Part shown: in pieces, positions 15,530 to 37,537 of the stretch
How positions within the stretch are numbered: position 1 is the first letter of the stretch
Layout: every line of letters starts with the position of its first letter
DNA from: Woeseia sp.
GTDB lineage: Bacteria; Pseudomonadota; Gammaproteobacteria; Steroidobacterales; Woeseiaceae
Direction: 5' to 3'
Length of the DNA: 64,000 nucleotides
Assembly (NCBI GenBank): GCA_037968755.1
Contig: JBBKWB010000020.1
Location: 2,228 to 66,227 of the forward strand
Notes under the pieces: generated by a model
Told to the model about the DNA's origin: nothing
The model's database searches: none
What the model saw: only the letters and a program-made list of their open reading frames with translations
Translations under genes and position numbers: made by a program

Positions 15530-15546
15530 TGCTCCTGTAATCGTGA

Positions 15547-17271
15547 TCACCGCGGCACAAGGAAAAACTCGCCGAACTCGTGACCTGCGAGATTGATTGG
15601 TGCGTAGACCGGAACCTGTTCAAACCGGTCGCGGTCGAATGCGGCCTGAGCGACGTTCGAACGAATCTGCAATAGCAATTGCTGGCCATCGATGACCCCG
15701 CTATTCGAGCGCAGGGCATCGATAAGCGCATTCGCAAATACAGAATGACCGCCGCGTCCGCTGTCGAGCACGGGCATCAGCCCGCCCGATGTCAATGCCG
15801 TGCGCGAGCGCCTCTTGTTCAACGCGATGAAGTCCGCGGTAAGTTGCGCTGGCGTCTGCCCGGAGCGCAGCGTGGTTGCAGTAGTGCGCGTCAGCGACCC
15901 GGAATAGCAGGAATCAGCGATAACCAGAATGTGGCGAGCAGCCATGATGTTGAGTTGATCGGTCAGTGACGTATTCGAAATCCAGTTACTGCTGTCGTCG
16001 GGCGCCGCGTCGACCGGCAGCCAGTGACCACGATCATTTTTCTCATCAAGCGTGCCGTGACCGGCGTAATAGATCAGCAGGTTGTCGTTGTCCGTTAGGT
16101 TCTTGCGAAGGTCATTGAGTTCTCGCATGATCTCGCCGCGATCAGCGTTTTCCAGATGCCTGACATTGAAGCCGTAGCGCTCACGCAGGACCTCGGCGAC
16201 AACACGCGCGTCTTTGACCGCGCTGACGAGCGGGTTCATATTCTGGTAGTCGTTGATGCCGATCACGAGTGCGTGGAATCTGCCGAGCTCGGCACCAATT
16301 TGCTGTGGATCTCGGCCGTCGGGCTGCAGCACGAACACTCGCTGACCACGTCTCCCAAGCTCGTCAACAGCGACCACCGACACTCTCGACCCTTCCTCCC
16401 TGACCGGAACGCGCGTCTGAAACAGACCGTTGGGTTCGAACACCACCGCCGTGTCGTTAACGGTGATCGCGCGTAGCTGGGAGCTTGCCCGGACTTTGCC
16501 AATGATCAGACGTTCCGTTACGGCGGAGGCAACCGTCGCCACCGCGACGCCTCTCGTTTGCGGCACTTGCGGATCAATCATGTCGATGACGGGCCCGTCC
16601 GCGTCGCTGCTGGCATCCGGTAGTGATGCGGGTTGCAATCCCGGTGTTTCCTGCAATGCCGGCAGGCCTGCCGCCTCCCGATACCAGGTCAGGGCTTTTT
16701 CTCGATCGGCCGGTACCCCACGGCCGGTCTCATACAACTTGCCAAGATTAAACTGTGCCGATGCGTTTCCCTGTTGCGCAGCAAGCTCGTACCAGTGCGC
16801 AGCAACGCCGAAGTCCGGATCAGTGCCGAGACCTTTTTCGAAGATCTCTCCGATGGTGTTTTGTGCCACTGCATCGCCCTGCTGTGCGCGCGAAAGCCAT
16901 ACCTCTTTTGCCGTTTGCAGATTGGCCCGGTCGTATTCTACGTATTCACCGCCACGAATCGCGCAGTCGCCCGCCGTAAGCCGCGCCGGTCGTCGAGGTC
17001 CAATAAATGAAAACCGGTTGCCGATTCGCTTGTGCTGACCAGGTAGCAAGCAATCGACGACCAACATTTCGTCAAAAGACGATTGCGCTGGCTGGGCCTG
17101 GCAGAGTGTCGGAACGATGAGCGCGAATAGCGTCAGCGTCGAGACCGTTCCGAGGAGACGAGCCCCGATCAGGGACAATAGGCCGGATCGCCGGGACCCG
17201 GTGTTCGGTCGTATGGTGCGCACCGTAATGCCCTCCACTGACAACCTGCAAATCCGCTGCATCGATACCAT
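15547..17271 (-). CDS. exported Sel1-repeat / caspase-like (peptidase C14) protein
   Basis: Signal-like N-terminus. Sel1 repeats (AQQGDAVAQNTIGEIFEKG, AAQQGNASAQFNLGKLYETG). Caspase dyad YYAGHG and ADSCYSG. Confidence 0.85.
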   Translation of the reverse strand: MVSMQRICRLSVEGITVRTIRPNTGSRRSGLLSLIGARLLGTVSTLTLFALIVPTLCQAQPAQSSFDEMLVVDCLLPGQHKRIGNRFSFIGPRRPARLTAGDCAIRGGEYVEYDRANLQTAKEVWLSRAQQGDAVAQNTIGEIFEKGLGTDPDFGVAAHWYELAAQQGNASAQFNLGKLYETGRGVPADREKALTWYREAAGLPALQETPGLQPASLPDASSDADGPVIDMIDPQVPQTRGVAVATVASAVTERLIIGKVRASSQLRAITVNDTAVVFEPNGLFQTRVPVREEGSRVSVVAVDELGRRGQRVFVLQPDGRDPQQIGAELGRFHALVIGINDYQNMNPLVSAVKDARVVAEVLRERYGFNVRHLENADRGEIMRELNDLRKNLTDNDNLLIYYAGHGTLDEKNDRGHWLPVDAAPDDSSNWISNTSLTDQLNIMAARHILVIADSCYSGSLTRTTATTLRSGQTPAQLTADFIALNKRRSRTALTSGGLMPVLDSGRGGHSVFANALIDALRSNSGVIDGQQLLLQIRSNVAQAAFDRDRFEQVPVYAPINLAGHEFGEFFLVPR

Positions 17272-17584
17272 CGAACTAAGGTCAGCGGATTTCAGGAAAC
17301 CTAGTAAATTTAGTCTGCTCTCCTCTTAAAGCGTGATTCTTGGTCGAATTCCATCAGACCTAAGCGATTCCGCCTCCGTAGTAGTGGGAAAATTCGACGC
17401 TGTCTGTGCGTCCGTGCTGCCGAGCGAGAAATCCCCAAGCGTTGCGATACTGTCGGGGGCTGCATCCGGATCAGTCTGGGTGTGAAAGTCTAGTCCTTTG
17501 TGCGAGGTATGCCAAATATGGTCACGTGCTGCCACCGGTTTCGCTATAATCGCACCTAGCCCAAAGTAGCCATCGACTTCCCCA

Positions 17585-19225
17585 ATGCGACAGTTGCAAC
17601 GAATATTGATCGCTTGTGTGCTCACACTGGGCGCCTGGTCGGCCGGACCAGCGGACGAGCGCGGTGTTGCCGCCTCCGCGTCGCCGGAATTGACAGCACC
17701 CGGCCGCCTTGTGCTGGCGGTTATCGGTATTGATGACTACCGGCATTGGCAACATCTGGACAATGCCGTCAGTGATGCCGTTGGCTTTCAAAATGCGTTG
17801 GTCGAGAAAGCGGGATTCGCCGTGCCGATCGAGCCCCTGTTAAATGAAGATGCCACGAAGTCGGCGATCATGGAATTCATTCAGGACAAACTGCATGGTG
17901 AGTTGCTGGCTGACGATCAGCTGGTCCTGTTTTTTGCAGGGCATGGTCAGACTCGCGAAACTAACCTCGGTGATATCAAGCGGGAGTCGGGTTACCTCGT
18001 TCCGGTCGATGCACCCGCCGCTGGTGCAGGCGAACGATGGAGTGCCTACATTCCTATCGATGAATTTCTGCGTGCCGTCGACGAGCTGCCAGCGCGGCAC
18101 ATTCTGGTTGTTCTCGACGCATGCCATAGTGGTTTTGCTCTCGGCGATGCGGTCGACAAGATGCGCGGTGTTGACGAGTATCGCGATGTTTTGGCGAGCA
18201 AGATCAGTCGGCGTGCTATTACCTCGGCTCGCAAAGACCAGCTCGCGTCGGACAGTGGCCCGCTTCCAAACCATTCGTTGTTTACAGGGTCATTTGTGGA
18301 TGGGCTAACATGGGGCAAGATCGATATCGATGGCAATGGCCTGGTAACATCGTCGGAAATTGGTTTGTACCTGCGGCAAGTTGTCGGACAGGAAAGCAAT
18401 TCAGCACAAACACCAGACTTCGGCGCATTCGGTTTCGATGATCGAGGCGAACTTACAATATCGCTGAACAACCAGAGTTTCAGTGCGCTTATTGCGCGTT
18501 CAATGAACGCGCTCGATCATGGACGCCATGAGCAACTGGCGGCACTCAGCAATGAAATGTCAGCGACAAAACCCGACAATCCGACGACGCTTTATTTTCG
18601 CTACCGTCTGGCATTGTTGAATGGCAATATCGAAGATGCTATGGACGCTATCGATGCGCTGACCGAGACGCCGTTCGCCGCGGGTGAAATTCCGCTGACC
18701 GAAGTCGATGTACGGGACCTGCAGGTTCAGCTGCCGTACTGGAAGTCGGTTCTCGAGCTACCGGATCGCGGTAATGGCTTCGTTGATATTGGCGTAGAAC
18801 TTAAGTCGGGTGAAATTGTGTCGGCGGAGAGTCGAGGAGATGTGCAGGCCTTTCCCGTGCCCATCAACGACGAGTTTCGATTGCGCATCAAGAATAAAAC
18901 GAACCTCCCGCAATTCGTGTCGTTGCTGCTGATCTCCGAGACTGGCCACATAAGAACCGTACGGTTGTGGGAGCAGTTACAGCGCCACTTCGGCGGCATG
19001 CAGGAAGGTGAGACTGTTCTGTCGGTTCCCCTCCAGAAATACAGCGTGACGGGTATAGAAGAACTGCGTTTTATCGTTGCGCCGGCGCCGATCGAGGAAT
19101 TGTTGTTGCCGCTGGACACAAAGTCCAGGGGTGTCAGCAGGATTCGGGAGGAAAGCCTTGAGGTCATCGCGGACTCTCACCAAACGGTCGTTCGATTGGT
19201 GAGTTCTCACGACATTGCGAACTAA
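17585..19225 (+). CDS. exported caspase-like (C14) protein with DUF4384-like C-terminal domain
   Basis: Signal peptide MRQLQRILIACVLTLGAWSA. Dyad FFAGHG and LDACHSG. The C-terminal segment FPVPINDEFRLRIKNKTNLPQFVSLLLISETG is DUF4384-like. Confidence 0.85.
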   Translation: MRQLQRILIACVLTLGAWSAGPADERGVAASASPELTAPGRLVLAVIGIDDYRHWQHLDNAVSDAVGFQNALVEKAGFAVPIEPLLNEDATKSAIMEFIQDKLHGELLADDQLVLFFAGHGQTRETNLGDIKRESGYLVPVDAPAAGAGERWSAYIPIDEFLRAVDELPARHILVVLDACHSGFALGDAVDKMRGVDEYRDVLASKISRRAITSARKDQLASDSGPLPNHSLFTGSFVDGLTWGKIDIDGNGLVTSSEIGLYLRQVVGQESNSAQTPDFGAFGFDDRGELTISLNNQSFSALIARSMNALDHGRHEQLAALSNEMSATKPDNPTTLYFRYRLALLNGNIEDAMDAIDALTETPFAAGEIPLTEVDVRDLQVQLPYWKSVLELPDRGNGFVDIGVELKSGEIVSAESRGDVQAFPVPINDEFRLRIKNKTNLPQFVSLLLISETGHIRTVRLWEQLQRHFGGMQEGETVLSVPLQKYSVTGIEELRFIVAPAPIEELLLPLDTKSRGVSRIREESLEVIADSHQTVVRLVSSHDIAN

Positions 19226-19294
19226 CGTCGCCTTGCAGCGGTAGCGACCGGCGACGGTCAGCAGTGCTACATTGATCCGCATAAAGTCATTCTT

Positions 19295-19379
19295 GCCCTA
19301 ACCCGGGGCTCTTCCTGCGCTGGCATTCTGATCGGTGTGGCGCGGAAATGTTCCAATGAAAAACAACAACGCTCGCTCG
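19295..19379 (+). repeat. orphan copy of the leader plus first 8 codons of the 21817 gene
   Basis: About 68% ungapped identity over 81 nt with 21756-21838, including the identical 13-mer GGCATTCTGATCG. Encodes MKNNNARS versus MKSNNARS. Similarity stops at the CHAT gene stop codon (19380). Confidence 0.6.
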
Positions 19380-21620
19380 CTAGTGACCACCAACACCTGG
19401 ATCGCCACTGAGCGTAAAGGCCGCCCAGAAATAGGGATGCGGATACTGTTCGCGAACGTAACGCTGTGCCGCAGCCAGCGCCGCTGTTTTCGATTGACCG
19501 GATCGGAGTTGACGATAAAATTCAATCATTAACGCGCTCGTCGCCGCATCGTCGACTGGCCACAGGCTCGCAATTACAGAGTCGGCGCCCGCGGACAAAA
19601 ATGCACGGCTCAGGCCGACGACATCTTCGCCGGCACTCAGCTTACCCATCTGTGAATCGCACGCACTCAACACAATGAGCTCAACGCTTTCCAGCCGCAT
19701 GGAATAGATCTCATGCACTTCCAGCGAACCGTCCGCGCGGCGATCGCGGCCTAACAAAATGCGGGAGAACAGTGGTTTGACGGGATTAAGCTCTCCATGT
19801 GCGGCGATGTGAATGATGTCGGCGCCAGTCGCTCTGTCAACGAAGGCACTTTCCGTTGCCTGTGGGCCAAGAATAGCTTCGACGCCGTAAAGATCGGCGA
19901 TGGCCTGTGCTTCGGCATCAGCATGATCAAGTCTGTCAAACCCTTCAACCTCGGCCTGCGACATGACCAATATCTGCCCCCCAATGTGCAATGACGGTTT
20001 GAGATGAACACGTACACTTGCGGCAGGAAGATACGAGATCGTAAATCGGTCCGCGAGGTAGCCGTCGCCATCGGTCAGCGACGCGAATGACAGGTAGTTG
20101 AGCGCACGATGCGGCACGATGATCAGATTGCCTTCAGCGACACCACTTTCCAGTGGGGCAAACAACTTGCCATACAAATCGGTAAGGCTCTGTCGGAGTG
20201 GCGGTCCAACGGCATTGTTCGCAGCGGTGATACCACGAGCGCTCGAGCCTGCGAGCTGATCCAACCGCGAAACCATGTCCTGTATTTCGAGGTATCCGGC
20301 GTCGAGAACCACGACATTCAGTGATGAATTGTCGACGATGAAGGCGAAGGTTTCATCGACTGAAACGAAGTAGCTAATCAAAGTCGTCCCATCCGGCAGC
20401 GTCGCCTGCAAGTCTGCGAGCGATGCAACAGCGACGCTACTCAAGCTGGATGCGGCGACATCATCGCCGAGGTTCTCCCGGCTGCTGTCGCGGCTGCGCT
20501 CAAGACTGCTGATCTCTTCGCGCAATGATCGCGCGCGATCGTCACCCTCACGGGCTTCCTCTCGCTGTAGATCACGTTGCAATTCCAGCAATTGCCAGTT
20601 CAGGCTTTCAACGCGGCTAAGCTCGAACGCCGTGCGATTATTCGTCCGTGTAGCGCCGAGCTGATCTATAAATATACGCGCGCGGGATCGCTCGCTGTAT
20701 AAAAACGCTTTCTCGATTTCACCTTGATGCACGGCTGCCGTAACCGCACCAATGTATGCCGGTCCCGATACAGTCGGGGCAGACAGACGAAAGACTTCAG
20801 GCTCACCGGCGGAGACCACGGCTTCCTGTATCTCGATGGCCTCTTCAAACACCACAAGTGCTTCGTCGTAACGTTCTTGTGCTAGGTAGACGCTCCCGAT
20901 GCCCACTAACGGTAGCAACGACCAGGTCGGAATCGGCAGGCGACGCGCTCGCACGAGAGCATCTTCATAAGTGGCGAGCGCCAGATCGTAATTTTTCTGT
21001 TCTTGGTAAACGTTGCCCTTGGCGGCAATGACGCCGGCGCGCGCTCCGGAATCTAGCAGCGCAGAGCCAAGTGCTCGGTCGTAAGCTTCGATGGCATCTT
21101 CATTGTGTCCTTCGGCCACCAACACGCTGCCCATATTCGCAAACAGGGTCGGGGCGGCGGCAGCATAATAAGTTGTGCCCCTAAGTACCTCATGTGCTTC
21201 CAAATACTGTTTGGCGGCAGCTTCGTTGTTTCGCATTAAAAAGTGGGTATTGCCAATTTTCTGCAGCAATACCGCGTAGTTGTCCTTGGCGCCAATCTGT
21301 CTGGCGAATTCTGCGGCATCTTCGTAATACGTCCGCGCGCGCTCAGGCTGACCGAGGGCCGCATAGGTATCGCCAATCAAGCCGACTGCAACAGCCTCGT
21401 TAAACAGATCTTTCTCGCGTTGCAGAGTTTCGCGGGCGCTCAACAATTCAAGCAAGCCTAAGCGGTACCGCCCGGACGTGACGTAGCCGATACCGCGCTG
21501 CATCTGGGGGTACCAGTCTGGCGTATTTCCGCTGACGCGGCTGCTACGTTCGTACTGAATCGAGCATGCCGTCAGAACAAGCGTAAGAATTGCCAGCCAC
21601 ATTGGAAGAGCGTTGCGCAT
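19380..21620 (-). CDS. TPR-repeat CHAT-domain lipoprotein
   Basis: Lipobox LVLTAC. TPR-like repeats over about 300 aa. CHAT dyad IIHIAAHG and LSACDS, followed by SLWPVDD. Confidence 0.85.
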   Translation of the reverse strand: MRNALPMWLAILTLVLTACSIQYERSSRVSGNTPDWYPQMQRGIGYVTSGRYRLGLLELLSARETLQREKDLFNEAVAVGLIGDTYAALGQPERARTYYEDAAEFARQIGAKDNYAVLLQKIGNTHFLMRNNEAAAKQYLEAHEVLRGTTYYAAAAPTLFANMGSVLVAEGHNEDAIEAYDRALGSALLDSGARAGVIAAKGNVYQEQKNYDLALATYEDALVRARRLPIPTWSLLPLVGIGSVYLAQERYDEALVVFEEAIEIQEAVVSAGEPEVFRLSAPTVSGPAYIGAVTAAVHQGEIEKAFLYSERSRARIFIDQLGATRTNNRTAFELSRVESLNWQLLELQRDLQREEAREGDDRARSLREEISSLERSRDSSRENLGDDVAASSLSSVAVASLADLQATLPDGTTLISYFVSVDETFAFIVDNSSLNVVVLDAGYLEIQDMVSRLDQLAGSSARGITAANNAVGPPLRQSLTDLYGKLFAPLESGVAEGNLIIVPHRALNYLSFASLTDGDGYLADRFTISYLPAASVRVHLKPSLHIGGQILVMSQAEVEGFDRLDHADAEAQAIADLYGVEAILGPQATESAFVDRATGADIIHIAAHGELNPVKPLFSRILLGRDRRADGSLEVHEIYSMRLESVELIVLSACDSQMGKLSAGEDVVGLSRAFLSAGADSVIASLWPVDDAATSALMIEFYRQLRSGQSKTAALAAAQRYVREQYPHPYFWAAFTLSGDPGVGGH

Positions 21621-21755
21621 GCGCCCAAAACCTCGGTGGTCGTCTCACCTGATTATGCCAGACCGGGGATCTGCTGGCAGGAACAACGAGTACAGTGGCG
21701 GCGGCGGCCCCAGCGGCGGCGGCCGGTGCTAGAATAAGCTATACACGGTTTATTC

Positions 21756-21816
21756 GCCCTGCCCTGGGACCGCTCCCTTGCGGGCATTCTGATCGTTCAG
21801 ATGCAGGAGCATTCCG
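21756..21816 (+). promoter_or_regulatory. conserved upstream leader shared with 19295-19355
   Basis: Paralogous with the orphan copy. Lies in the divergent intergenic region between the CHAT gene (minus) and the 21817 gene (plus). Confidence 0.4.
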
Positions 21817-22824
21817 ATGAAAAGTAACAATGCCCGGTCGCCGATAGTAGCGCGCGCGGTAGCTTTTTTGTTACCCGCACTTTTAATTCCGTGGGTTGCC
21901 GCCGCGGCGGAAGTTGGTAGTGGCGGTGTCATTATTCGGGTTGACGACGGCTTGTCGCAGGAATTTTGTGTCGATGGCAGCAGCGATCAAATTTGGCTGC
22001 ACCTGCGCCGATTCATCGCGCGCAGGGACAGCAATGTATTCAAAGCTGACTCCAGCATTGGAATGGTTATTGACACCACGATTACAGGCGACATCGGGCG
22101 GCAAAAAGACAAGATCAATTTTCCGATCGTCTTCCAGGCCACAGTACGCAGCTACCAAAAAGGCCTGGTCTCAATTCCTATCGAGAAAGGCATCTTGTCA
22201 GGCTTTGCGTTGAGATCCGGCGACACTCGCTACACGCAGGTCGACTTCTCGTTTCGGTTTCTGAAAGTGCAGGAAGATACGACCATCAGTCGTGCGATCA
22301 AGTCTATTGCCGGTATCACGGAGGCCTTCAATATTCCAGCAGAATTGTTTGGTGGTTCATTTCAGATGTACGCATCCGTCGCATCGTCGTTGATCGACAA
22401 TGTGTTCACCGACAACCGTTACAGCACTAAGGATCCGCTGGCATCCATTGTCCTGGCGTTCGATCCTACCGGACAGTGTGACAATTTATTGTTCGAGAAA
22501 ACTGGTACCAAGGCAGTCATCTTGAGCGCGGGTGGTGACGAAAAAGATGGCATCGTCAGTATCGATACGATCAACGGCTACTGTTTTGCCGCAGAGCTGC
22601 GGCCGGCTTTCGAATTGTGGTTCTGGAACCGGGTCGGTGGAATTTGCGAGGCCCGGCCCGCTGATGCGAAGCAGCTGCGCAATCCTTATTTCGGTTTCTA
22701 CGTGACTGCGACTCCGACCGATAATGCAGCGCCAACGCGTGGTGCACGCGATCAAAGCATGTTGAGCCTGTGCGCCGCGCATGGGCTAACGGATCCGATG
22801 CAATGCGGCGGCATCAGCGAATAG
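21817..22824 (+). CDS. hypothetical exported protein (no family recognised)
   Basis: 335-aa ORF with signal peptide AFLLPALLIPWVAAAAEV. Its 3' end overlaps the start of the downstream CHAT gene. Confidence 0.5.
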   Translation: MKSNNARSPIVARAVAFLLPALLIPWVAAAAEVGSGGVIIRVDDGLSQEFCVDGSSDQIWLHLRRFIARRDSNVFKADSSIGMVIDTTITGDIGRQKDKINFPIVFQATVRSYQKGLVSIPIEKGILSGFALRSGDTRYTQVDFSFRFLKVQEDTTISRAIKSIAGITEAFNIPAELFGGSFQMYASVASSLIDNVFTDNRYSTKDPLASIVLAFDPTGQCDNLLFEKTGTKAVILSAGGDEKDGIVSIDTINGYCFAAELRPAFELWFWNRVGGICEARPADAKQLRNPYFGFYVTATPTDNAAPTRGARDQSMLSLCAAHGLTDPMQCGGISE

Positions 22825-25484
22825 CGACACGCGCGCTTGTCAAAACCGCGCTTCTGATCGCGGCAGCGAACGCTTTGGCGATGAGCGGTGGGACGCCGTG
22901 GGCCGAGATTAGTGCAGCGGTGCCCGAGGCCAGCCGCGATCCCAGTCTCGCTGGACCTGTACTGAACTCGGTAAAAGAAGTGCTGCTCAATGCGCGCGCC
23001 GACAATGATGCTATCGGTTTGGCAATGGCCAGTTTCGTAGTCGGCGAAATCCTTGAGCAGAACCAGGTTTACCAGGAAGCGCTGCAATACTACGAAAGTG
23101 GGCTGCAGGTACTGGCGGACAGTGACACGGTCGTTGCCATCGATGTCGATTTTCTGCTGCAGCGCATTCAAGGATTTGAAAAGCGATTCAGCGGGCCTGC
23201 CCAAATGCCTGGCAGCGCTGACCTGTACCGCGGCCGTGCGAATTCTGGGCAAATCGCATCGCTGTCAAAAGCTGCCGCATCACAACATCTGGCAACAGCG
23301 CTGGCAGTGAATGTCGGCAACCTCTACCTGCGGCAAATGCAGCTTCAACCGGCGGCCGAGTATTTTATGGCGGCGGTCTCATCCGCAAAGCAGTCCGGTG
23401 ATATTTCCGCCGAAGCAGAGGCGTACTCCAACCTTGCGTGGACGTCGATCACTGGTGGTGACTTCGAGTCGGCGACGCTGCATTTGCGCGAGGCGATGGA
23501 GCTGGGCGGCAACAACGGGGTTCGTGAGCCGCTCCGCAAAGCGACCCTGGCAATTGGAGTAAATGCACGCGAAAGCGGCCAAGTCGAAGCTGCGATTGAA
23601 AATCTAACGAAAGCTGTTGGCTTGTATAACGATGTGGGCGACGAGGTTGGCGTGGGGCGCGCCCGCGCACACCTGGGTACGGCACTACTCCTCGCCGAAC
23701 AACTGCACAGCGCAAAGGATGCATACTTGGCTGCGCTACTTATAGGTCGGGAAACAGGGGACGAGGAAACAATCCAGCACAGCCGTGGCGGCCTGGCGCG
23801 AACGTATCAGAAACTGGGCGACTGGCCGTCATCGGCGGCAGCTTTCGCAGGCTATTTTGATGCGTTAGATGAATTCGTTAGCGCTTGGCGCACAGATCAG
23901 GGCCGCGTTGCGATATTCGAAAGTCAACAGGCAATGCTTGACGATTACGCAACCGTTGAAAGCGAGATTGCGATGCAGTCGGGCGACTTTTCCCGCTTGC
24001 ACGCGGTTATACAGAAAGTGCGGGGTCGCGCACTGGCCTGCTTATTGCAGTCCAAGCAAAACCGAATTGTCCGTCCGGCAGGTATGCTGGACGGTGGTAC
24101 CGTCTTCTACGGAAAAAACTGGGATTACATACAGCGAGAATATGCGCATGCGATAGGCACTGACGCGGCTATGTCAATGATGGAACAACGTGCGCCAGCC
24201 GTTGCGGTGGGCACGACCACAACGGCCGACGCCGTCACCGATCACTGCGGAATTCAGACTGGCTTCGCCGAACGAACGCATAGCGGCCCTCCGATACTTG
24301 AATACTATGTGGCGCCAGACCGCCTCGTTATTCTGTTGACGGATGAGCGCGGGATTCATGGTCAGATTATCGACATTGGGGCATCTGACCTACGAACACG
24401 AGTGAACCGCTACCTGGAGGCGATTCAAGTCGATCAGCCGCGGGGTGTTGTCGCCGCCGGCACAGCCGCAACAACCCAAGCTCAGGCCGGCGATGTGCAA
24501 GCAGCCATTGCACGCCAACTGTACGACCAGCTGATACGGCCCGTCGAGACGCACCTGCGGCAAAGTACTCACAAGTCCATTGTCATTATTCCGGACGAGT
24601 CGTTGTGGCGTTTACCGTTCGCTGCGCTACTTGATCGAGAAGACCGCTATTTCGGAGATCGTTTTGAAAGCGGTTACATCACTTCTCAAACCGCGCTTAG
24701 TATGCTCCGTTCGCGTCAACGGCACGCGGATCACAATTCGGTGCGGGCCTGGGTTGTCGGTAACCCAACCTTGCCGAATGCCGTCAATGGTTGCGGCGAA
24801 CGCTTTGAGCTCAGTAACCTGCCGAACGCTGAAGCGGAAGCAACAGAAGTTGCCGAAATTTTGGGCGAAAACAATGTCGATCTGTTCGTCGGCGGCGCCG
24901 CAGATCGACTTCGACTGGATGCCTGGCATTCCGATTATTCGGTGTTGCATCTCGCCACGCATGGCATCGCTTGCCCGAGTGATCCACTCAGTTCTTTTGT
25001 CGCACTGACTGCCCTCGACAGCACTACACTCAAAATTCCGCCAGACAACACGATCGCCGAGAATGTTGTCGATTCTCGTTTGCCGGTACAACTGAATTTT
25101 GATTTTGATCTGGAACAGGTTGATGCAGAGCCTTCACCCTCGTATCCCGGTGTATTGCAGGCGCGCCACGTAATCAATGAATACAATCTTCAGGCTGATT
25201 TGGTCACGCTCAGTGCCTGCCAGTCCGGACTTGGGCAGGTGTCAGGTGACGGAACAATCGGTTTTGCGCGGGCTTTTCTTGCCGCGGGTGCGCGATCCGT
25301 TATCGTCAGCTTGTGGAAAGTGGACGATCACGCTACACGTTTGCTCATGACCCAGTTTTACAAAGGTTATGCCGAACACGGTAACAAGGCACGTGCGCTG
25401 CAGAATGCCATGACAGCGACGCGGGCTATTTATCAAGATCCGCAGTACTGGGCCGGTTTCGTTCTGATCGGCATGCAGGAGTAG
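22803..25484 (+). CDS. TPR-repeat CHAT-domain protein, exported
   Basis: Met at 22803 gives signal-like MRRHQRIATRALVKTALLIAAANALA (the ORF opens at 22770). CHAT dyad VLHLATHG and LSACQSG, followed by SLWKVDD. Confidence 0.85.
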   Translation: MRRHQRIATRALVKTALLIAAANALAMSGGTPWAEISAAVPEASRDPSLAGPVLNSVKEVLLNARADNDAIGLAMASFVVGEILEQNQVYQEALQYYESGLQVLADSDTVVAIDVDFLLQRIQGFEKRFSGPAQMPGSADLYRGRANSGQIASLSKAAASQHLATALAVNVGNLYLRQMQLQPAAEYFMAAVSSAKQSGDISAEAEAYSNLAWTSITGGDFESATLHLREAMELGGNNGVREPLRKATLAIGVNARESGQVEAAIENLTKAVGLYNDVGDEVGVGRARAHLGTALLLAEQLHSAKDAYLAALLIGRETGDEETIQHSRGGLARTYQKLGDWPSSAAAFAGYFDALDEFVSAWRTDQGRVAIFESQQAMLDDYATVESEIAMQSGDFSRLHAVIQKVRGRALACLLQSKQNRIVRPAGMLDGGTVFYGKNWDYIQREYAHAIGTDAAMSMMEQRAPAVAVGTTTTADAVTDHCGIQTGFAERTHSGPPILEYYVAPDRLVILLTDERGIHGQIIDIGASDLRTRVNRYLEAIQVDQPRGVVAAGTAATTQAQAGDVQAAIARQLYDQLIRPVETHLRQSTHKSIVIIPDESLWRLPFAALLDREDRYFGDRFESGYITSQTALSMLRSRQRHADHNSVRAWVVGNPTLPNAVNGCGERFELSNLPNAEAEATEVAEILGENNVDLFVGGAADRLRLDAWHSDYSVLHLATHGIACPSDPLSSFVALTALDSTTLKIPPDNTIAENVVDSRLPVQLNFDFDLEQVDAEPSPSYPGVLQARHVINEYNLQADLVTLSACQSGLGQVSGDGTIGFARAFLAAGARSVIVSLWKVDDHATRLLMTQFYKGYAEHGNKARALQNAMTATRAIYQDPQYWAGFVLIGMQE

Positions 25485-25511
25485 CACCATGCGACACGAC
25501 AGGGGTTAGCG

Positions 25512-27650
25512 ATGAAAAACACTCTACGAGTGACGCCGTTTGTCTTTGTATTTGTATCGGCATTGGTAGCGGTGCAGATGTTCGCAATTGGTGATGCGAT
25601 GGCGGCAAAGCGCGCGCTGATTGTAACGATCGGCGAGTATCAGCCCGATACGGGCTGGAAAACAATCAGTTCAAACAGCGATTTACCCATCATGCAACAC
25701 GCTCTTGAACGTCAGGGTTTCGCAATCGACAATATCACGCATCTTTCTCAAGAGCGGGCGACGCACGACGGCATTGTTAAGGCCATTGAAGACCACCTGA
25801 TCAAGCCAGCCGCGCCAGGCGATGTTGTGGTGTTTCACTACTCCGGTCACGGTCAGCAAATTCGTGACGACAATTACGACGAAATAGATGGCTACGATGA
25901 AGCACTCGTGCCAGTCGACGCGCCGGAATCTCCGCCAACAGGATACAACGGTGAAAAGCATCTGCGTGACGACGAACTCGGAGCGCTATTGTACAGATTG
26001 CGGAAACGTGTTGGTCCTAACGGCGACGTACTGGTGTTCCTGGATTCGTGCCATTCGGGAACAGCGACACGCGGTGATGCTTATCCGGACCCAGTGCGCG
26101 GCAGCGCTTCTCCAATAGGTGCGCCGCTGGAACATGATGGTGCGCATCGCAATGACAACGACGCTAGCGGCTTTCTGGATGCTTCATCACAACGGGGAAC
26201 TGGCGGTGATAATCCCGAAGACCTGGCACCAATGGTGGTAATCGCCGCCGAGAATCACAACCGACTCGCTGAAGAAACCACCGACGAAAACGGCGGCCGC
26301 GTTGGCGCCTTGAGCTGGGCACTCAGCAAGGCGCTCGTCGATGCCGACGAACAGACCACCTACCGCGACTTATTCGAGACAGTCAAGCGTCACACTGCGG
26401 CCAAACACATTCCCAATAGTCCGCAGGCGGAGGGGAAACTCGACCGGTTGCTGTTTGCAGGACAGGCAGTCGACCAGAACCCGTACTACCGAGTGAAGGC
26501 AATGAACCTCGATGAAAAGTGGGCGGAACTTGAGGGCGGTGCGCTGGTTGGTTTGCTCAAGGGTTCGGAAGTCGAAATTCATCAGGTGAATACTCGTCTG
26601 CCGCAGCCCGATACTCTGATTGCAAAAGGCAGGGTCAATCATGCAACGCCGTATACCGCCGAAATCGCGATTACTGAGGTGGTTGAGACGGGCGCCGAAT
26701 CCGGCATTGCTTTTGTTACCGCGCAATCTTTCGGTTCGCTGCGCGTCAATGTCTATGTTGATGCGGCGGATGATTCAGTCTGGCGCGAGAAAGTGGTCTA
26801 CACATTGGAACGGGAGGCCGCGCGGCAAACGTCCCTGATCGTGCTGCTCGAAGAAAAACCAGCTGGCCTGGTTGCAACCGACGCGAGCAAGATTGTATTG
26901 GTACGTGAAATCAGGAACGGGGCACCGTCCCAACGTGGTGTCGTTCTGGAGACTTGGGAGAACGGCCAACGTCTGATCCCTGGTCCCTTTAAGACTTCAG
27001 ACCCGGCATTGGCCAGCAAACTGATCGCGCGCATAGAACGGTATGCACAGAATGCCTACCTGCGGGCATTGGATGTACAGGCAGATGGAATGGAGGTTGC
27101 GCTTGATCTGATTCCCTGCGAGACGGAATGCACGGGTTTGAGCGAATGCGGTGGCAGTTGCCGTTGTATTGCAGAAGGTGATCCACAGGATATTTTAGAT
27201 ACTGGCAATAACCTGAGCATGAAAAAAGGCGCGGGATTCGGTCTGCGCCTTAGAAACGTCGGTAGCAAACCGGTTTATGCGACCGTTCTTGACTTGATGC
27301 CTGATGGGGATATCGCGTCGCTGTGGCCACTACCCGGGACGTCCGCCGCCGATACCAAGATTGAGGGAGGCAAGGCTTATCGTATAGCGGACCCCAATCA
27401 CCAGAACGAGTTAGCAGTGTATCTTGCCTGTCCGCCGTTCGGCACCGATATGCTGAAAATCATCGCGACGACAGAACCCGTCGATTTTGGTCCGATTACG
27501 CGCGGCACCCGAACACGTGGCGGTGAACGCGGCCCTCTGGACGTGTTGTTCGAAAACAGCTTGCGCGGAATGCGCGGTGTCGCACCCGCATTCGCTGTCG
27601 GTTCAATCAGCACGTCGTCCGTTTTGTTAATCGTGGAGGACACTGAGTAG
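25512..27650 (+). CDS. exported caspase-like (C14) protein with DUF4384-like C-terminal domain
   Basis: Signal peptide. Dyad HYSGHG and LDSCHSG. The C-terminal segment GFGLRLRNVGSKPVYATVLDLMPDGDIASLWP is DUF4384-like. Confidence 0.85.
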   Translation: MKNTLRVTPFVFVFVSALVAVQMFAIGDAMAAKRALIVTIGEYQPDTGWKTISSNSDLPIMQHALERQGFAIDNITHLSQERATHDGIVKAIEDHLIKPAAPGDVVVFHYSGHGQQIRDDNYDEIDGYDEALVPVDAPESPPTGYNGEKHLRDDELGALLYRLRKRVGPNGDVLVFLDSCHSGTATRGDAYPDPVRGSASPIGAPLEHDGAHRNDNDASGFLDASSQRGTGGDNPEDLAPMVVIAAENHNRLAEETTDENGGRVGALSWALSKALVDADEQTTYRDLFETVKRHTAAKHIPNSPQAEGKLDRLLFAGQAVDQNPYYRVKAMNLDEKWAELEGGALVGLLKGSEVEIHQVNTRLPQPDTLIAKGRVNHATPYTAEIAITEVVETGAESGIAFVTAQSFGSLRVNVYVDAADDSVWREKVVYTLEREAARQTSLIVLLEEKPAGLVATDASKIVLVREIRNGAPSQRGVVLETWENGQRLIPGPFKTSDPALASKLIARIERYAQNAYLRALDVQADGMEVALDLIPCETECTGLSECGGSCRCIAEGDPQDILDTGNNLSMKKGAGFGLRLRNVGSKPVYATVLDLMPDGDIASLWPLPGTSAADTKIEGGKAYRIADPNHQNELAVYLACPPFGTDMLKIIATTEPVDFGPITRGTRTRGGERGPLDVLFENSLRGMRGVAPAFAVGSISTSSVLLIVEDTE

Positions 27651-27689
27651 TTCGAAATATGGCGGTTCTTCAACACTACCAATCGATGC

Positions 27690-30422
27690 CTACAGTTGGC
27701 AGCGACTGCCGCTACAGACCCGTCCTAGTGCACCTAATCCCGGCAAGCTGATGCCGCTCTTCGCCTCGTCGTCGAAGCGTTTGTAACGCCAGCATCCTTT
27801 CAGTTCCATGTCAGGTCGGTCCCATTTGCGCCAGTCCTGTTTGTACTTGATGCGCTGAAACTCGACACCGGTTTCCGCCTTGATTTTGTAGTCCGATTCT
27901 TTCGCACTGCCGTCCCAGCCGTGCGATCCCCACGCAATACGCTTGGCCGGGTCGATCACCATAACAACATGACCGTCGTTACGAACATCGCTGCGGTACA
28001 CCAGTATGTCTCCTAACGACAAGTCTTCATTGGCAGGACATTGTTCAAAATCATCTGCCATTAAGGAATCATCGGCGACCATCTGTGCAGTTGCGAGGTA
28101 GCTATCACTCCGGTTGTAGTCAAGGCCCGCGCGCGTGAATGCGTACCAAATCGCACGCGAGCAATCGATGCCTTCTGCGAGATTTGCTTCGTCGGATGCC
28201 TTCGACCAGTCGTGTTGGAGGTAGGAGAAGCCCTCTCTTCGTGACGCACCGGCTAGCCACTCGGCTTGTTTCAAAACGCGATAAACCGCCGAGTCTGGGT
28301 CGTCAGGCAAGTACGGGCGGACATCGAAGTTTCGTAAGGTGTACTCGCGAATGTCGATATCGTTAGTCGTGGTACTGGCCTTCTTGAACGACTGGTTGGC
28401 ACGGACACGAAACGGCACCGCGCTGATCGTCCAGGTCGTGTCCTCAACAATTCCGCCAGATGCCTGGATGCCACGCGTACCCGGGTTGAGGTAGTTGTGC
28501 AGTGCCCTTGCGAGCGAGGATTTCCGGGGTATACCGGGACCGCGTGCGGCGGCGCTTTTGGTCATCAAATGCCACGGGACCGGGTTGCTTTCCTCGGTAC
28601 CGAACACGAGTATGTGTTCCTGAATATTCAACGGCGGCACGCCGACAAACCCCTCTTCGTTTTTGTTGAAGATGAGCTCTTCGCCCGGTCGCAGAATTTC
28701 TGTTCGACCGTCAAATGGAAAACCAAATGTCGACCCATCGCTCGACAGGGCCACCCCGCCGACGGCCAGTGCTTTCGGCGATTGTTCCGAGAGTCTCACC
28801 TTGACATGCCACTTGTGGCACAACGGGATCAGCTGTTCCTCGTTTGGTTGCGCTGCAACCCAGCTTCCGTCCGCGCATTCCGACTGTGACTCGGATTCAA
28901 CAAGCTGAACCTGCAACGTGCTGTGGTCGACAAAATCAGTGCCGCCCTCACCAACCAACAAAAGCAGAGCGCGTTGCCGGGCATGTTGCCAGAGACTCTG
29001 TGGCACAGTGTCCTCACTTGCGTACACGTTGCGAATTCGATTTTCTGGTCCCCGTAGGATCAATCGACTTCTTTCGTCGATACTCAGTTCAAATTGGTCG
29101 TCATGATCGACGAGTTCAACCAGCGCTTTGGCCTCGGGATCGGTAACAATCATCTCGCGAATCGCATCGGCACGGCGTTGCGGGATACCGCCTGGCAGGT
29201 TTGGGTCACGTAGTCCCACTCTGATCTTTAGTGCGTCGTCGCTGACGCGGACGAGGACCGCGAGATCACCGGGCTCAATGGCGGCGGCACCTGGCATTTC
29301 GGTGGCAATTACGGCACGTGCATTCAACCCCGTTGACTCGGTCACTACTACCGTTGCCTTCGCTTTCGCCGGATCGCCCAGGTCGCCGGGCGTTGCCGCG
29401 CCATCGTAAACCCGGAACTCTGCTCCGCGACCGGCACCGGTTAATGGCGGCCCGCCGATCTCAAGCGGATCTACGTCAATTACGTCCCAGCCTGCGGCGC
29501 GAGTGCCGCTGCGATTGCCGAAGACCGCCCGATTCAGGTCACCCTGAAAATACGGAATCTGATAGCTGTTCGCTGCAACCAAAGGCGGGACCTGGCGAGA
29601 CAGTTGCGCGTACGTCATTATGCCGGCGCGTGGTCGGGACAGGACCTGGATCAGGGCGCCAGTAAACACGCCACTCTCGGCGGTTTCAAGCGCTGGCGTT
29701 CCGTCACTGGCTGCGGTCAACGCAACCAATCCCGGCAGCGAATCGGGGGCCCAATCGCCGCCGCCGTCGCCGCCGCCGTCATCACCGCTACTGGTTGGTG
29801 TCGCGGTGCGCGCCGTTCTCGGCAGGAATCGCGCCTGCAATTCGGAGTCACCGCGCGTTGATGTGCCGGAATTACACGAATCAACAATGGCGACGATGTT
29901 GCGCGTCTTCGCATGCAGTTGCTGCAACATTTTGTGAAAGTCGTCGTCGACCAACTCGTCAGCACCCCAACCATCGGCGTTGTGAAAGACAAACGTTTCA
30001 TCCCATTCGTCAGGTTCATCACCATTCTGGTCAGTCACCTGTGAGCCATGGCCCGCGTAAAACACGACCGCCACATCGTTTTCCCGCGCGCGATCGACAA
30101 GCGCCTCCTTGAACGCGTTGCGGAAGTTGTCACTTGTGGCCGCTTCATTCTGCAGCATGCAGATATTTTCTTTCGGGAAGTTATAGGTGTTGGTCAGAAG
30201 CTGGTATATGCCATTGGCATCAGCGAGCGTCCCTGGCAAGTCGGTGACGGATTCGTTAGCGTAGTCGCCGACGCCAACGATCAGTGCAAGATGACGGGTA
30301 CCGTCGATCGCGATTGCGTCGCCAATGTCACACATGTCGCTTTCGGGTGTGGTAGCCGTCTGGCATGACTGCACACCGAGAATCGATAACAGGGTCACGC
30401 ACACACGTTGCAGCTTATTCAC
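27690..30422 (-). CDS. lipoprotein fusing an N-terminal caspase-like (C14) domain to a C-terminal NlpC/P60 cysteine peptidase domain
   Basis: Lipobox LGVQSC. Caspase dyad FYAGHG and VDSCNSG (about 29780-30300). NlpC/P60 motifs GIDCSRAIWYAF and GDILVYRS...GHVVMVID (about 27900-28200). Confidence 0.8.
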   Translation of the reverse strand: MNKLQRVCVTLLSILGVQSCQTATTPESDMCDIGDAIAIDGTRHLALIVGVGDYANESVTDLPGTLADANGIYQLLTNTYNFPKENICMLQNEAATSDNFRNAFKEALVDRARENDVAVVFYAGHGSQVTDQNGDEPDEWDETFVFHNADGWGADELVDDDFHKMLQQLHAKTRNIVAIVDSCNSGTSTRGDSELQARFLPRTARTATPTSSGDDGGGDGGGDWAPDSLPGLVALTAASDGTPALETAESGVFTGALIQVLSRPRAGIMTYAQLSRQVPPLVAANSYQIPYFQGDLNRAVFGNRSGTRAAGWDVIDVDPLEIGGPPLTGAGRGAEFRVYDGAATPGDLGDPAKAKATVVVTESTGLNARAVIATEMPGAAAIEPGDLAVLVRVSDDALKIRVGLRDPNLPGGIPQRRADAIREMIVTDPEAKALVELVDHDDQFELSIDERSRLILRGPENRIRNVYASEDTVPQSLWQHARQRALLLLVGEGGTDFVDHSTLQVQLVESESQSECADGSWVAAQPNEEQLIPLCHKWHVKVRLSEQSPKALAVGGVALSSDGSTFGFPFDGRTEILRPGEELIFNKNEEGFVGVPPLNIQEHILVFGTEESNPVPWHLMTKSAAARGPGIPRKSSLARALHNYLNPGTRGIQASGGIVEDTTWTISAVPFRVRANQSFKKASTTTNDIDIREYTLRNFDVRPYLPDDPDSAVYRVLKQAEWLAGASRREGFSYLQHDWSKASDEANLAEGIDCSRAIWYAFTRAGLDYNRSDSYLATAQMVADDSLMADDFEQCPANEDLSLGDILVYRSDVRNDGHVVMVIDPAKRIAWGSHGWDGSAKESDYKIKAETGVEFQRIKYKQDWRKWDRPDMELKGCWRYKRFDDEAKSGISLPGLGALGRVCSGSRCQL

Positions 30423-30488
30423 CGAATTTCTCCCAAGGCAGACCGGAGATTAGATAGTATAGTCCCAACCACAGACCGGGAGACAATC

Positions 30489-31919
30489 ATGTTGAAATGG
30501 GCGGACAGACTAGGCCGGCTGGTGCTTCTCTCCTTTGCGGTGATTGTCGTATATCGGTTCTGGGTTTGGTGGATGCCGGATGAACCGGAAACTTATTTGC
30601 GGACAGACTTGGTTAACGCGCAGGAGTCCGACGCGTTTGTTACCGGGTTTGCGATGGTTGCCCTCGTGCAATTCGATACTGGCCGCGACAAACTCGTAGC
30701 CTTCTCGTTCATAGAGCCGGAGGCCAACCGCAGAGACGTCAAGGGGTTTTGCTACCGACTGTACGAACTCGTAATCGGCTACGACAGTCTGTGGGCGACT
30801 GTGAAATCGGCAGAGGCTCGGCAAGGTAGTGAAGTCCAAATCGATCCACCGCGCGTCCTTGCGGCGGATGTCGTCGAGGCTCGCCAGGGTGGCGATGATA
30901 CCAGCCAGGCGAAGTGTGATCGTATTAACCTGGTCAGCGGCGAGACCAACAACGGCGCGCGGCTGGCAATGTTGCAACAGTCCCTGGTTGACAACAATCA
31001 GTGGGACAGTCACGTGCGGCATGCTACCAACGTCATCACGACGTTTTCCGCGACTATCGCTGCACGCCGCCGCGCGGTGTTCGACAATCGCCTGGACAAT
31101 CTTGAAACTGCGAGCAGGGGGTTGGCTGGTACCGCAACGGTGGCGCAATACAATGAGTGGCTCGAGCGATCGCGGGAAGGTTTGTCAGTTGCTGCGAGCG
31201 ACGAAGGCACGCGCGAGCTGCGACGAACAACAAACATAGAAGCCCTGGACTCTGCACAGCCTCTACCCGAAACAAGGGGAATCGATGATCGCGGCGAATC
31301 GCAGAGTCGCGGTTTGCTGGGTGACGCGAAGGATGCCATCGGTGGAGCTCTCGAGTCCGAGGCGAGTCATGTCCGTCTGGCGATTGCCGATGCCGGCGGA
31401 TTTCTCGGCACGCTGAAACTGACGTTTTCCACGATTGGCATCTTCACGCAGCAGGCTCGCAAGTGGGTGTTCTGGAAGAACGGACAGTTCTATATTCGCC
31501 AGGACTTCGCGGACGCAACCTACGGCAGCGACTTTACGCTTGATCTGGCACGTTCCCGGGGCGGCTTGTTCGCACCCCGGCGGCTTGAAATCACTGTGCC
31601 AGAGCCGTATCTGCTGGCGCTTGATCGTTACACAACAGTTATCGTGGCCAGGCCGGACGACTTTCAACTCAAGCTTGAAGACGATACCGGAAATACCATC
31701 GAAGCGGCGATGAAAGCGGATCTGCAAACGCAAATCGATCGAGTGGAGCCGCAGGCTATTCGCTTTGCCAAGGCTCTCTTAACGACGCAAATCCAACAAC
31801 TAGTGGAGGCTGATGTGTCGGAGGTCAGGGTACGTTTTGCAGAACGCGACTCCGCGTCACCGCAACAATTGACCGAATTGATTCGTTTGATGCGCGAAAG
31901 ACCCGAAGAAAACGACTAA
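30489..31919 (+). CDS. hypothetical membrane-anchored protein
   Basis: Start set at Met28 (MLKWADRLGRLVLLSFAVIVVYRFWVWW, single N-terminal TM). 476 aa. No family recognised. Confidence 0.5.
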   Translation: MLKWADRLGRLVLLSFAVIVVYRFWVWWMPDEPETYLRTDLVNAQESDAFVTGFAMVALVQFDTGRDKLVAFSFIEPEANRRDVKGFCYRLYELVIGYDSLWATVKSAEARQGSEVQIDPPRVLAADVVEARQGGDDTSQAKCDRINLVSGETNNGARLAMLQQSLVDNNQWDSHVRHATNVITTFSATIAARRRAVFDNRLDNLETASRGLAGTATVAQYNEWLERSREGLSVAASDEGTRELRRTTNIEALDSAQPLPETRGIDDRGESQSRGLLGDAKDAIGGALESEASHVRLAIADAGGFLGTLKLTFSTIGIFTQQARKWVFWKNGQFYIRQDFADATYGSDFTLDLARSRGGLFAPRRLEITVPEPYLLALDRYTTVIVARPDDFQLKLEDDTGNTIEAAMKADLQTQIDRVEPQAIRFAKALLTTQIQQLVEADVSEVRVRFAERDSASPQQLTELIRLMRERPEEND

Positions 31920-33531: not shown

Positions 33532-33567
33532 TGTCTGTTACTCCGCGTACATGAGTTCTATGCCACC

Positions 33568-35538: not shown

Positions 35539-35547
35539 TTCGTGTGG

Positions 35548-37505: not shown

Positions 37506-37537
37506 CGAATATTCCTCTTTCACGGTCGCAATCCTGA

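Follow-up and report, generated by a model that had tools for sequence, protein, structure and literature searches.

A 64,000-nt window from Woeseia sp. (Woeseiaceae), a marine-sediment bacterium, contains an island at about positions 15547-31919 in which caspase-fold proteins are encoded by six of nine consecutive genes. Throughout, the window denotes this whole stretch of DNA. Judged by their recurrence in relatives, the C14 and CHAT protease genes of the island and two new protein families encoded among them appear functionally linked, as a mosaic of modules and not as a fixed operon. We tentatively read this lineage-restricted neighbourhood, found mainly in Woeseiaceae, as an envelope-resident module that may couple caspase-fold proteases to peptidoglycan hydrolases.

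Caspase-fold proteases of the island

About 40 sizeable open reading frames (ORFs; at least 80 amino acids, aa) across the window were scanned against Pfam. Peptidase_C14 was found in four island ORFs, with 64-94 bits against a cut-off of 21.4. CHAT, preceded by an N-terminal TPR array, was found in three ORFs of the window, with 187-229 bits over about positions 2-289 of the 289-position model; these ORFs were also matched by TPR_12 and other TPR models. Profile searches thus recovered all of the C14, CHAT, TPR, Sel1 and DUF4384 domains.

The four C14 genes differ in the domains that accompany the protease. They encode an exported 574-aa Sel1-repeat protease at 15547-17271 (- strand; motifs YYAGHG and ADSCYSG; C14 E = 1e-26, two Sel1 matches, E = 6e-18), an exported 546-aa protease at 17585-19225 (+ strand; FFAGHG and LDACHSG; E = 3e-17) with an N-terminal signal peptide and an uncharacterised C-terminal half, an exported 712-aa C14-DUF4384 protease at 25512-27650 (+ strand; HYSGHG and LDSCHSG; C14 E = 1e-19, DUF4384 28.7 bits with a cut-off of 27), and a 910-aa lipoprotein at 27690-30422 (- strand; FYAGHG and VDSCNSG; E = 3e-22) that joins C14 to an NlpC/P60-clan domain. 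The CHAT genes within the island encode a 746-aa TPR-CHAT lipoprotein at 19380-21620 (- strand; HIAAHG and LSACDS; CHAT E = 7e-65 plus TPR families) and an exported 893-aa TPR-CHAT protease at 22803-25484 (+ strand, ORF from 22770; HLATHG and LSACQSG; CHAT E = 9e-68, with TPR_12). The third, an exported protein of 928 aa, is encoded at 42259-45042 (+ strand, ORF from 42178; CHAT E = 6e-55, TPR_12 E = 7e-36).

Mutual alignment of the His/Cys motifs of the four C14 domains showed both residues to be kept in all four. The dyad of the 712-aa protein was in register with HYSGHG/DSCHSG of the solved metacaspase-1 (7qp0) and with the dyad of bacterial GSU0716 (3bij). His and Cys did not vary among the eight CHAT domains aligned, which were drawn from the window and related loci. 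Pfam matches and aligned dyads together bear out the initial annotation, which had assigned a catalytic dyad to four C14 and two TPR-CHAT ORFs and had listed a third CHAT gene. The active-site residues of both groups are intact. A survey of 1463 genomes found at most three metacaspases per operon (Asplund-Samuelsson 2012, PMC3501461), a maximum that the six caspase-fold genes of the island exceed.

Export signals

Export was called heuristically, from N-terminal hydrophobicity, charge and lipobox patterns together with conservation in orthologues. All seven C14/CHAT ORFs, and likewise the 335-aa protein encoded between the two CHAT genes of the island, begin with a basic n-region followed by a hydrophobic stretch of Sec or lipoprotein type. 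Lipobox-like motifs occur in the proteins at 19380-21620 (LTAC) and 27690-30422 (VQSC), the latter being kept as LAAC, LSGC or LQSC in orthologues of the 910-aa protein. The signal peptide of the 712-aa C14-DUF4384 protease is also kept in its orthologues. For the 893-aa TPR-CHAT protein the signal peptide starts from ATG 22803, and for the third CHAT protein from the internal ATG 42259. Orthologues on other contigs begin with signals of matching type, so the export signals are independent of start-codon choice. The long N-terminal signal of the Sel1-C14 protein contains SRRSGLL and may be of the Tat type.

The earlier proposal that all seven protease ORFs are exported was therefore sustained, and their signal peptides survived start-codon correction. 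The same annotation had listed two exported proteins of no recognisable family. Neither was matched by a family, and the 335-aa protein does have a signal peptide, but the 476-aa protein carries a conserved, uncleaved N-terminal transmembrane anchor in its place, with its bulk outside the cytoplasm. Both have invariant Cys residues, which fits an oxidising compartment. We predict the whole protein set to be extracytoplasmic.

Conserved linkage in relatives

The same gene families occur together in at least ten other contigs, mostly from Woeseiaceae, and identity within the 476-aa family ranges from 31 to 82%. When the ORFs of eight loci and the window were clustered all against all, five families recurred and no others, namely C14, CHAT, the 476-aa family and two small ones of unknown kind. 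A C14 or CHAT gene lies within 10 kb of the 476-aa homologue in seven related loci (designated L002, L003, L004, L005, L006, L010 and L011) and on the P0020 contig. The only 476-aa homologues lacking such neighbours are the most distant one (L009, 31% identity) and one on a short contig. The initial annotation had allowed that homologues might prove scattered and unlinked; instead, the 335-aa and 476-aa families were found elsewhere almost only beside C14/CHAT genes.

Gene order is conserved to different degrees. The order of the window, with the C14-DUF4384 gene pointing forward, the 910-aa homologue in reverse and the 476-aa homologue again forward, is repeated in L011 and the P0020 contig, and L005 keeps the divergent 910-aa/476-aa pair. 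L006 has the 476-aa homologue followed by a TPR-CHAT gene, a C14-DUF4384 gene and another TPR protein, and in L002 the 476-aa homologue stands between a CHAT gene and a further C14/TPR-CHAT/C14 group. L003, L004 and L010 hold the three genes of the 910-aa, 712-aa and 476-aa families in reshuffled order, plus an additional exported protein of 323-343 aa. This additional protein, encoded between the C14-DUF4384 and 476-aa genes (L003 3152-4123, L004 4438-5469 and L010 8931-9905, all on the - strand), has no family match, ends in a beta-barrel-like C-terminus (...GIGFRFG) and is absent from the window. The island is not one fixed system; it comprises at least four transcription units, with a membership that differs between relatives.

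These data also bear on whether there is a system at all, or only paralogues without linkage, placed side by side by chance in a genome rich in peptidases. Such an origin would agree with several transcription units on both strands, with the variable membership and with the third CHAT gene, 10 kb off among unrelated genes. We consider it very improbable, since the contigs that share these families are independent and their conserved neighbourhoods largely refute it. Two pairs are moreover fixed, the 335-aa gene with a TPR-CHAT gene and the 910-aa gene with the 476-aa gene, and the paralogues are old, each having orthologues of its own. Between the catalytic domains of the window paralogues identity is only 25-36%, compared with 50-74% for orthologues elsewhere, so the duplications are old and do not reflect recent paralogue expansion.

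The third CHAT gene was found where it had been annotated, 10 kb from the island, and any link between the two is putative. Its closest relative in the fetched loci is a 930-aa TPR-CHAT protein of L002 (30% identity over 848 aa), which itself lies within a C14/CHAT island.

Recent horizontal acquisition was not supported: base composition is flat across the window (GC fraction 0.54-0.60), no integrase was found there and the tRNA scan of the window was empty. One copy lies outside the main lineage. In L013 (GCA_039767955.1, JBDNBM010000062.1), a metagenome-assembled genome (MAG) labelled Desulfobacterales, a homologue bearing a 58%-identical NlpC/P60-like domain has as neighbours CHAT, C14-PEGA, another 910-like gene and a TPR protein, and signal peptides are present throughout. 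Either the island moved between phyla or this contig is mis-binned.

The core module

The conserved core, as predicted from domain content and neighbourhood, is made up of the C14-NlpC/P60-clan lipoprotein (910 aa), the periplasmic C14-DUF4384 protease (712 aa) and the inner-membrane-anchored protein of a rare new family (476 aa; 30489-31919, + strand, ATG 30489). Orthologues of the 910-aa protein with 50-68% identity were found in L001, L003, L004, L005, L010, L011 and L013. The C14-DUF4384 architecture adjoins a 910-aa or 476-aa homologue in L001, L003, L004, L006, L010, L011 and the P0020 contig.

The 910-aa protein consists of the N-terminal C14 domain, an uncharacterised middle of about 330 aa and a C-terminal NlpC/P60-clan Cys hydrolase domain (GIDCSRAIW ... 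DGHVVMV). This last domain was overlooked in the initial annotation, which described the protein as C14 only. The whole protein gave weak Pfam matches to Amidase_5, NLPC_P60 and DUF4846. With the C-terminal domain in isolation, Amidase_5 reached 22.1 bits (cut-off 21) and NLPC_P60 18.3 bits (cut-off 23). Among 19 homologues, Amidase_5 was matched in 10, DUF4846 in seven and NLPC_P60 in six. Cys and His are invariant in the family alignment, and JGI lists one homologue as a 'cell wall-associated NlpC family hydrolase'. The NlpC/P60-like family profile had no match among PDB sequences.

The 476-aa family is rare. The window protein had no Pfam, NCBIfam or PADLOC match, and 18 homologues were found among 5.8 billion proteins. 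Searched against 1.84 billion representatives, the family profile gave 123 matches at E <= 1e-3, 20 of them at E <= 1e-30; on genome contigs it found one locus only (a Woeseiaceae MAG), and on metagenome contigs four. The transmembrane anchor and two Cys residues in the periplasmic body are conserved, the latter invariantly. A moderately confident AlphaFold model (pLDDT 72, pTM 0.63) has two beta-sheet domains linked by long helices. A gasdermin-like or other known fold was rejected, as Foldseek found no match for the model in PDB (best E 0.13, TM-score 0.1) or BFVD (TM-score at most 0.18), nor did the family profile match any PDB sequence. Internal duplication was rejected as well (hhalign probability 3%). 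In the 1.84-billion library, the two halves of the protein (residues ~40-190 and ~295-455) each match a separate group of standalone proteins that are membrane-anchored and about 190 aa long; one of these has a weak, sub-threshold likeness to DUF4230.

The 910-aa and 476-aa genes are divergent across a 66-bp gap. This tight pairing, and its conservation, could be taken to suggest antagonism, with the caspase-NlpC/P60 lipoprotein and its partners acting as toxins on the walls of competitors and the 476-aa protein, the 335-aa protein or both conferring periplasmic immunity. One known effector class (type VI Tae/Tai) does combine amidases of the NlpC/P60 type with immunity proteins in the periplasm, and a gene content that is mosaic and changes fast from one close relative to the next, as here, is what conflict loci typically show. 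In addition, a contractile-injection-system operon (sheath, tube, spike, gp25, baseplate J and Pvc16-like genes) in L002 (positions 1-9816; ENA ERZ25039600 contig_22958) abuts a signal-peptide-bearing 452-aa CHAT gene and a 476-aa-family gene, and the same junction is found on a second, related contig. We nevertheless think antagonism unlikely. Pfam found no delivery system in the window, and the putative effector is a Sec-exported lipoprotein, not cargo of a secretion system. The pair is divergent, unlike an effector-then-immunity operon, and no polymorphic C-terminal toxin pattern was seen.

The 335-aa protein and its TPR-CHAT partner

A second module, again predicted from co-occurrence, is a strictly paired 335-aa protein and TPR-CHAT protease. 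The 335-aa gene (21817-22824, + strand) encodes an exported Cys-rich protein of a very small new family, with a signal peptide and about six conserved Cys residues, and its 3' end runs 22 nt into the TPR-CHAT gene that follows. In every readable locus (the window, L001, the P0005 contig and L012), the 335-aa gene lies directly upstream of the TPR-CHAT orthologue, with which it overlaps. Orthologues of the 893-aa protein itself are present in L001 (49% identity), L012 (48%) and L004 (38%).

A search of 5.8 billion proteins yielded only twelve homologues of the 335-aa protein, including one from a Woeseiaceae MAG. The protein had no Pfam, NCBIfam or PADLOC match, and an exact-sequence look-up returned no record. 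An AlphaFold model built from 11 family sequences was unusable (pLDDT 32), and the family profile had no match in PDB. For the protease, a PDB search with the CHAT domain alone had no match and the full TPR-CHAT profile retrieved TPR proteins only. A 298-aa protein upstream of the L002 TPR-CHAT gene was considered as a further family member and proved unrelated.

TPR-CHAT-type enzymes are known to have one dedicated adjacent partner, cleaved or inhibitory, as with Csx30 for Csx29 and securin for separase. This precedent is discussed in PMC11506125. Csx29 and separase share the TPR-CHAT architecture and the single dedicated partner, which offers a model for the 335-aa protein. They differ in being cytoplasmic and controlled by RNA or by the cell cycle.

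Variable members and cell-wall hydrolases

On the minus strand, the Sel1-C14 gene comes first in a unit of four genes packed end to end, and it overlaps the next gene by 4 nt. The second gene (14309-15550) encodes a 413-aa autotransporter-type outer-membrane beta-barrel with a very short passenger (Pfam Autotransporter E = 6e-31). The third (12416-14296) encodes an exported 626-aa S8 subtilase with Big_1 (S8 E = 2e-55), the C-terminus of which, with a VPAM motif, a transmembrane helix and an Arg-rich end, resembles a PEP-CTERM-type sorting signal. The fourth (11885-12403) encodes a 172-aa exosortase-family membrane protein (NCBIfam TIGR04178, 26.3 bits with a cut-off of 23). Among subfamilies it comes nearest to XrtH, though below the threshold of that model (E = 6e-15; 55 bits, cut-off 86). 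The same pair of an S8-Big_1 gene with VPAM tail and a 172-174-aa exosortase gene recurs in L010 (11391-13996, - strand), near a 476-aa homologue, where TIGR04178 scores 40.2 bits. The exosortase is likely a dedicated sorting enzyme of the neighbouring subtilase.

Other members also vary. The 746-aa TPR-CHAT lipoprotein is missing at the corresponding position in L012, the closest relative, where an orthologue of the 546-aa C14 protein (71% identity) abuts the 335-aa orthologue from directly upstream. L012 also contains an Amidase_3 (N-acetylmuramoyl-L-alanine amidase) gene that overlaps the end of a 432-aa exported C14 gene (1431-3465, - strand), and a 59%-identical orthologue of the 413-aa autotransporter adjoins this pair. 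The Amidase_3/C14 pair is a second, independent coupling of a caspase to a cell-wall hydrolase, in the slot that the Sel1-C14 gene occupies beside the autotransporter in the window. The island on the P0020 contig holds a trypsin and a phage-type lysozyme (Phage_lysozyme).

The initial annotation had described a self-contained protease network. That description leaves out peptidoglycan hydrolases that are fused (NlpC/P60-like) or adjacent (Amidase_3, lysozyme) to the proteases, and equally the recurring beta-barrel proteins and the S8 protease with its exosortase.

Candidate mechanism and nutritional alternative

If caspase-fold proteases do control peptidoglycan hydrolases here, the TPR, Sel1 and DUF4384 domains would serve to bring in particular ligands of the envelope or partner proteins. 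Each new-family protein could be a dedicated substrate, inhibitor or anchor of the neighbouring protease, in parallel to securin/separase and Csx30/Csx29. The 335-aa protein would then be a substrate or inhibitor dedicated to its TPR-CHAT protease, and the 476-aa membrane protein a similar partner, or an anchor, for the caspase-NlpC/P60 lipoprotein. Limited proteolysis in the periplasm might switch the fused or adjacent cell-wall hydrolases on or off, with NlpI-Prc-MepS as an analogue. As a result, murein or the proteins bound to it would be cleaved in a controlled way, either in the cell's own wall (remodelling or lysis) or in foreign wall material.

Several points weigh against this interpretation. 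No regulator or sensor of known output is present. The NlpC/P60 assignment depends on borderline Pfam scores and has no solved homologue behind it, and the 476-aa homologue that is most distant has no caspase neighbour. As neither new protein has an interpretable fold, the roles of substrate, inhibitor or anchor are pure inference. The island's transcription units number at least four, with promoter and terminator scans at chance level, and its gene content varies between relatives, so that speaking of one machine may be too strong.

A stronger version of the same idea is a cascade in which extracytoplasmic caspase and CHAT proteases, restrained by the two new partners, would sense attack on the envelope or damage to it and unleash fused and adjacent murein hydrolases that lyse the cell or its neighbours. 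We hold this version to be doubtful. Were it true, it would constitute an envelope-side counterpart of caspase-driven cell death that operates without NTPase, nucleotide signal or CRISPR input.

The array of hydrolases also suits a nutritional role, in which the island would encode an exo-enzyme kit that digests detrital cell envelopes outside the cell and releases amino acids and muropeptides. Woeseiales are proteolytic heterotrophs with 50-60 peptidase genes per Mb and a proposed growth on detrital cell walls and membranes (PMC7082342, PMC12175321). Clan-CD proteases can be degradative, as gingipains and clostripain are, and the islands combine them with broad-specificity S8 and trypsin proteases and with glycan or peptide-stem hydrolases (lysozyme, amidase and NlpC/P60). 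A sorting signal with an exosortase and beta-barrel proteins fit surface display, and feeding would need neither a regulator nor an NTPase. Against it, Pfam linked no TonB-dependent receptor, peptide permease or secretion system to the island within the window, and Sec signals alone reach only the periplasm. To our knowledge, the characterised C14 and CHAT enzymes are specific processing proteases. Bulk digestion would also hardly explain why the proteases are strictly paired with two new families that are non-enzymatic, one of which has an inner-membrane anchor. On balance we regard feeding as the leading rival, possible but not likely. In a proteolytic sediment lineage (PMC7082342), it is at least as plausible as the cell death, kin discrimination or defence that had been suggested for the island.

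Absent partners and known defence systems

Pfam found no STAND, NACHT, NB-ARC or AAA NTPase and no nuclease, Cas, cyclase, TIR or sigma-factor domain in the ORFs scanned across the 64-kb window. The window was equally devoid of Rfam, CRISPR and tRNA matches. The absence of NTPase, nuclease, CRISPR and nucleotide-signalling partners that the initial annotation had noted therefore holds across the Pfam, Rfam and CRISPR scans of the window.

Membership in characterised systems was examined and rejected in each case. For the island proteins, PADLOC and NCBIfam gave no more than generic similarity to caspase, CHAT and TPR models, all of it below threshold. For Csx29/Craspase, NCBIfam scores were 36 and 23 bits against a cut-off of 300, and the window has no Cas genes or CRISPR array. 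Caspase/CHAT conflict systems coupled to STAND or other NTPases have been described (Kaur et al. 2020, PMC7159879). The window offered neither an NTPase nor an effector-associated adaptor domain for such a system, and caspase_w_EACC1 reached 32-74 bits against a cut-off of 140. Borvo was rejected on a BovA match of 37 bits covering only 530-669 of 711 positions (PADLOC). The PADLOC caspase model was matched over only the first 130-180 of its 453 positions, and the two new families matched no PADLOC model. A gasdermin-protease system was set aside for lack of a gasdermin partner, the 476-aa model having no Foldseek match to PDB chains. A DdvA-type anti-sigma factor was dismissed too, as the TPR arrays directly follow the signal peptide or lipobox and the window has no sigma-70 region domains.

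These results weaken the case for envelope immunity or cell death, whereby exported TPR, Sel1 and DUF4384 sensors would detect attack by phages or predators and a caspase cascade would lyse the cell. Caspase-fold and CHAT proteases do serve as effectors in several defence systems, the partial PADLOC caspase and BovA matches point the same way, and cell-wall hydrolases are plausible executioners. The periplasmic TPR-CHAT part of Myxococcus DdvA has been proposed to sense phage infection (PMC11506125). Yet no match reached any curated defence-family threshold in PADLOC or NCBIfam, and the window has no gasdermin, NTPase, nuclease, ECF sigma (extracytoplasmic function sigma) factor or anti-sigma module. 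The neighbours are housekeeping or lipid-metabolism genes and not a defence island, and the base composition is uniform. We judge this role quite unlikely.

Comparison with known systems

Prokaryotic metacaspases or orthocaspases (MEROPS C14B; PF00656), exported forms and cell-wall-hydrolase fusions among them, were catalogued by Asplund-Samuelsson et al. in 2012 (PMC3501461). About 15% of the sequences in that survey had N-terminal helices that probably act as signal peptides. Sel1 and TPR were the commonest partner domains, and fusions to Amidase_2 and peptidoglycan-binding domains were also found. Operons held up to three metacaspases, and surface cell death or fratricide was already proposed. 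The island proteins are similar in their p20-type GHG/DxCxSG dyad, Sel1/TPR-type partner domains, probable signal peptides and murein-hydrolase fusion. In contrast to the surveyed proteins, the hydrolase of the island is of the NlpC/P60 clan and not Amidase_2, and four C14 and two CHAT genes stand together. The island is further tied to two new non-enzymatic exported families in conserved pairing, which the survey does not describe.

Myxococcus DdvA is a solved periplasmic TPR-CHAT in an anti-sigma factor, and a proposed sensor of phage infection (PMC11506125). It shares the periplasmic TPR-CHAT with a canonical His-Cys dyad and is thought to answer an extracytoplasmic signal by limited proteolysis. 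However, DdvA also has a cytoplasmic zinc-binding anti-sigma domain, a transmembrane helix and a cognate ECF sigma factor, and it controls a CBASS/CRISPR island. The window CHAT proteins have cleavable signal or lipoprotein N-termini, with no anti-sigma domain and no sigma factor nearby.

A functional analogy is found in Escherichia coli, where MepS, an NlpC/P60 endopeptidase, is brought to the protease Prc by the TPR lipoprotein NlpI (PMC11211486, PMC10671308). There, too, three partners cooperate in the envelope: a TPR lipoprotein of the outer membrane, a protease in the periplasm and a lipoprotein hydrolase of the NlpC/P60 type. Prc is an S41 protease, whereas those of the island are caspase-fold; the island joins TPR and protease in one polypeptide and fuses a protease to the hydrolase itself. 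The resemblance is one of function only.

Gingipains (C25) and clostripain (C11) are likewise exported caspase-fold Cys proteases, surface-attached in the case of gingipains and used in feeding by a proteolytic bacterium. They belong to other MEROPS families, and gingipains depend on type IX secretion and a C-terminal sorting domain that the C14/CHAT proteins of the island do not have.

In light of these precedents, the novelty implied by the initial annotation was too large: exported metacaspases, metacaspase-amidase fusions and multi-metacaspase operons (PMC3501461) and the periplasmic TPR-CHAT protein DdvA (PMC11506125) had all been published. The new elements are a family of caspases fused to NlpC/P60, C14 and CHAT genes mixed at such density, two exported families that are dedicated to this set and conserved in their pairing, and the recurrence of the whole as a shuffled island in Woeseiaceae.

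We found no published function for exported bacterial caspase homologues, although they have been catalogued for over a decade. The cassette offers testable partners for them, namely the cell-wall-hydrolase fusion and two new exported proteins tied to specific proteases. If the proteases control murein hydrolases, caspase-fold enzymes would govern cell-wall integrity outside the cytoplasm, as a second mechanism beside NlpI-Prc. If their role is nutritional, clan-CD enzymes would join the toolkit with which one of the most abundant bacterial groups of the seafloor recycles dead cell envelopes. Either outcome would be informative for a finding that is comparative-genomic and confined to a narrow lineage.

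Surrounding genes

Beyond the island, a co-oriented run of lipid-type genes (31963-39980, - strand) encodes a GMC oxidoreductase, a 656-aa protein with no family match, a patatin-like phospholipase, a 178-aa membrane protein, an acetoacetate-decarboxylase-like protein and an alpha/beta hydrolase. This run is probably a separate operon. Near the end of the window (57257-63873, - strand), a gene for a 1697-aa exported protein with an N-terminal OmpA peptidoglycan-binding domain is preceded by an overlapping gene for a 508-aa SdrD_B/DUF11 protein. A few kb upstream of the island, a cell-wall-related set at 5376-10989 (+ strand) encodes a glucosaminidase-domain protein, a polysaccharide deacetylase and a Peptidase_Mx-like protein coupled to an ATP-grasp enzyme of the D-Ala-D-Ala-ligase type.

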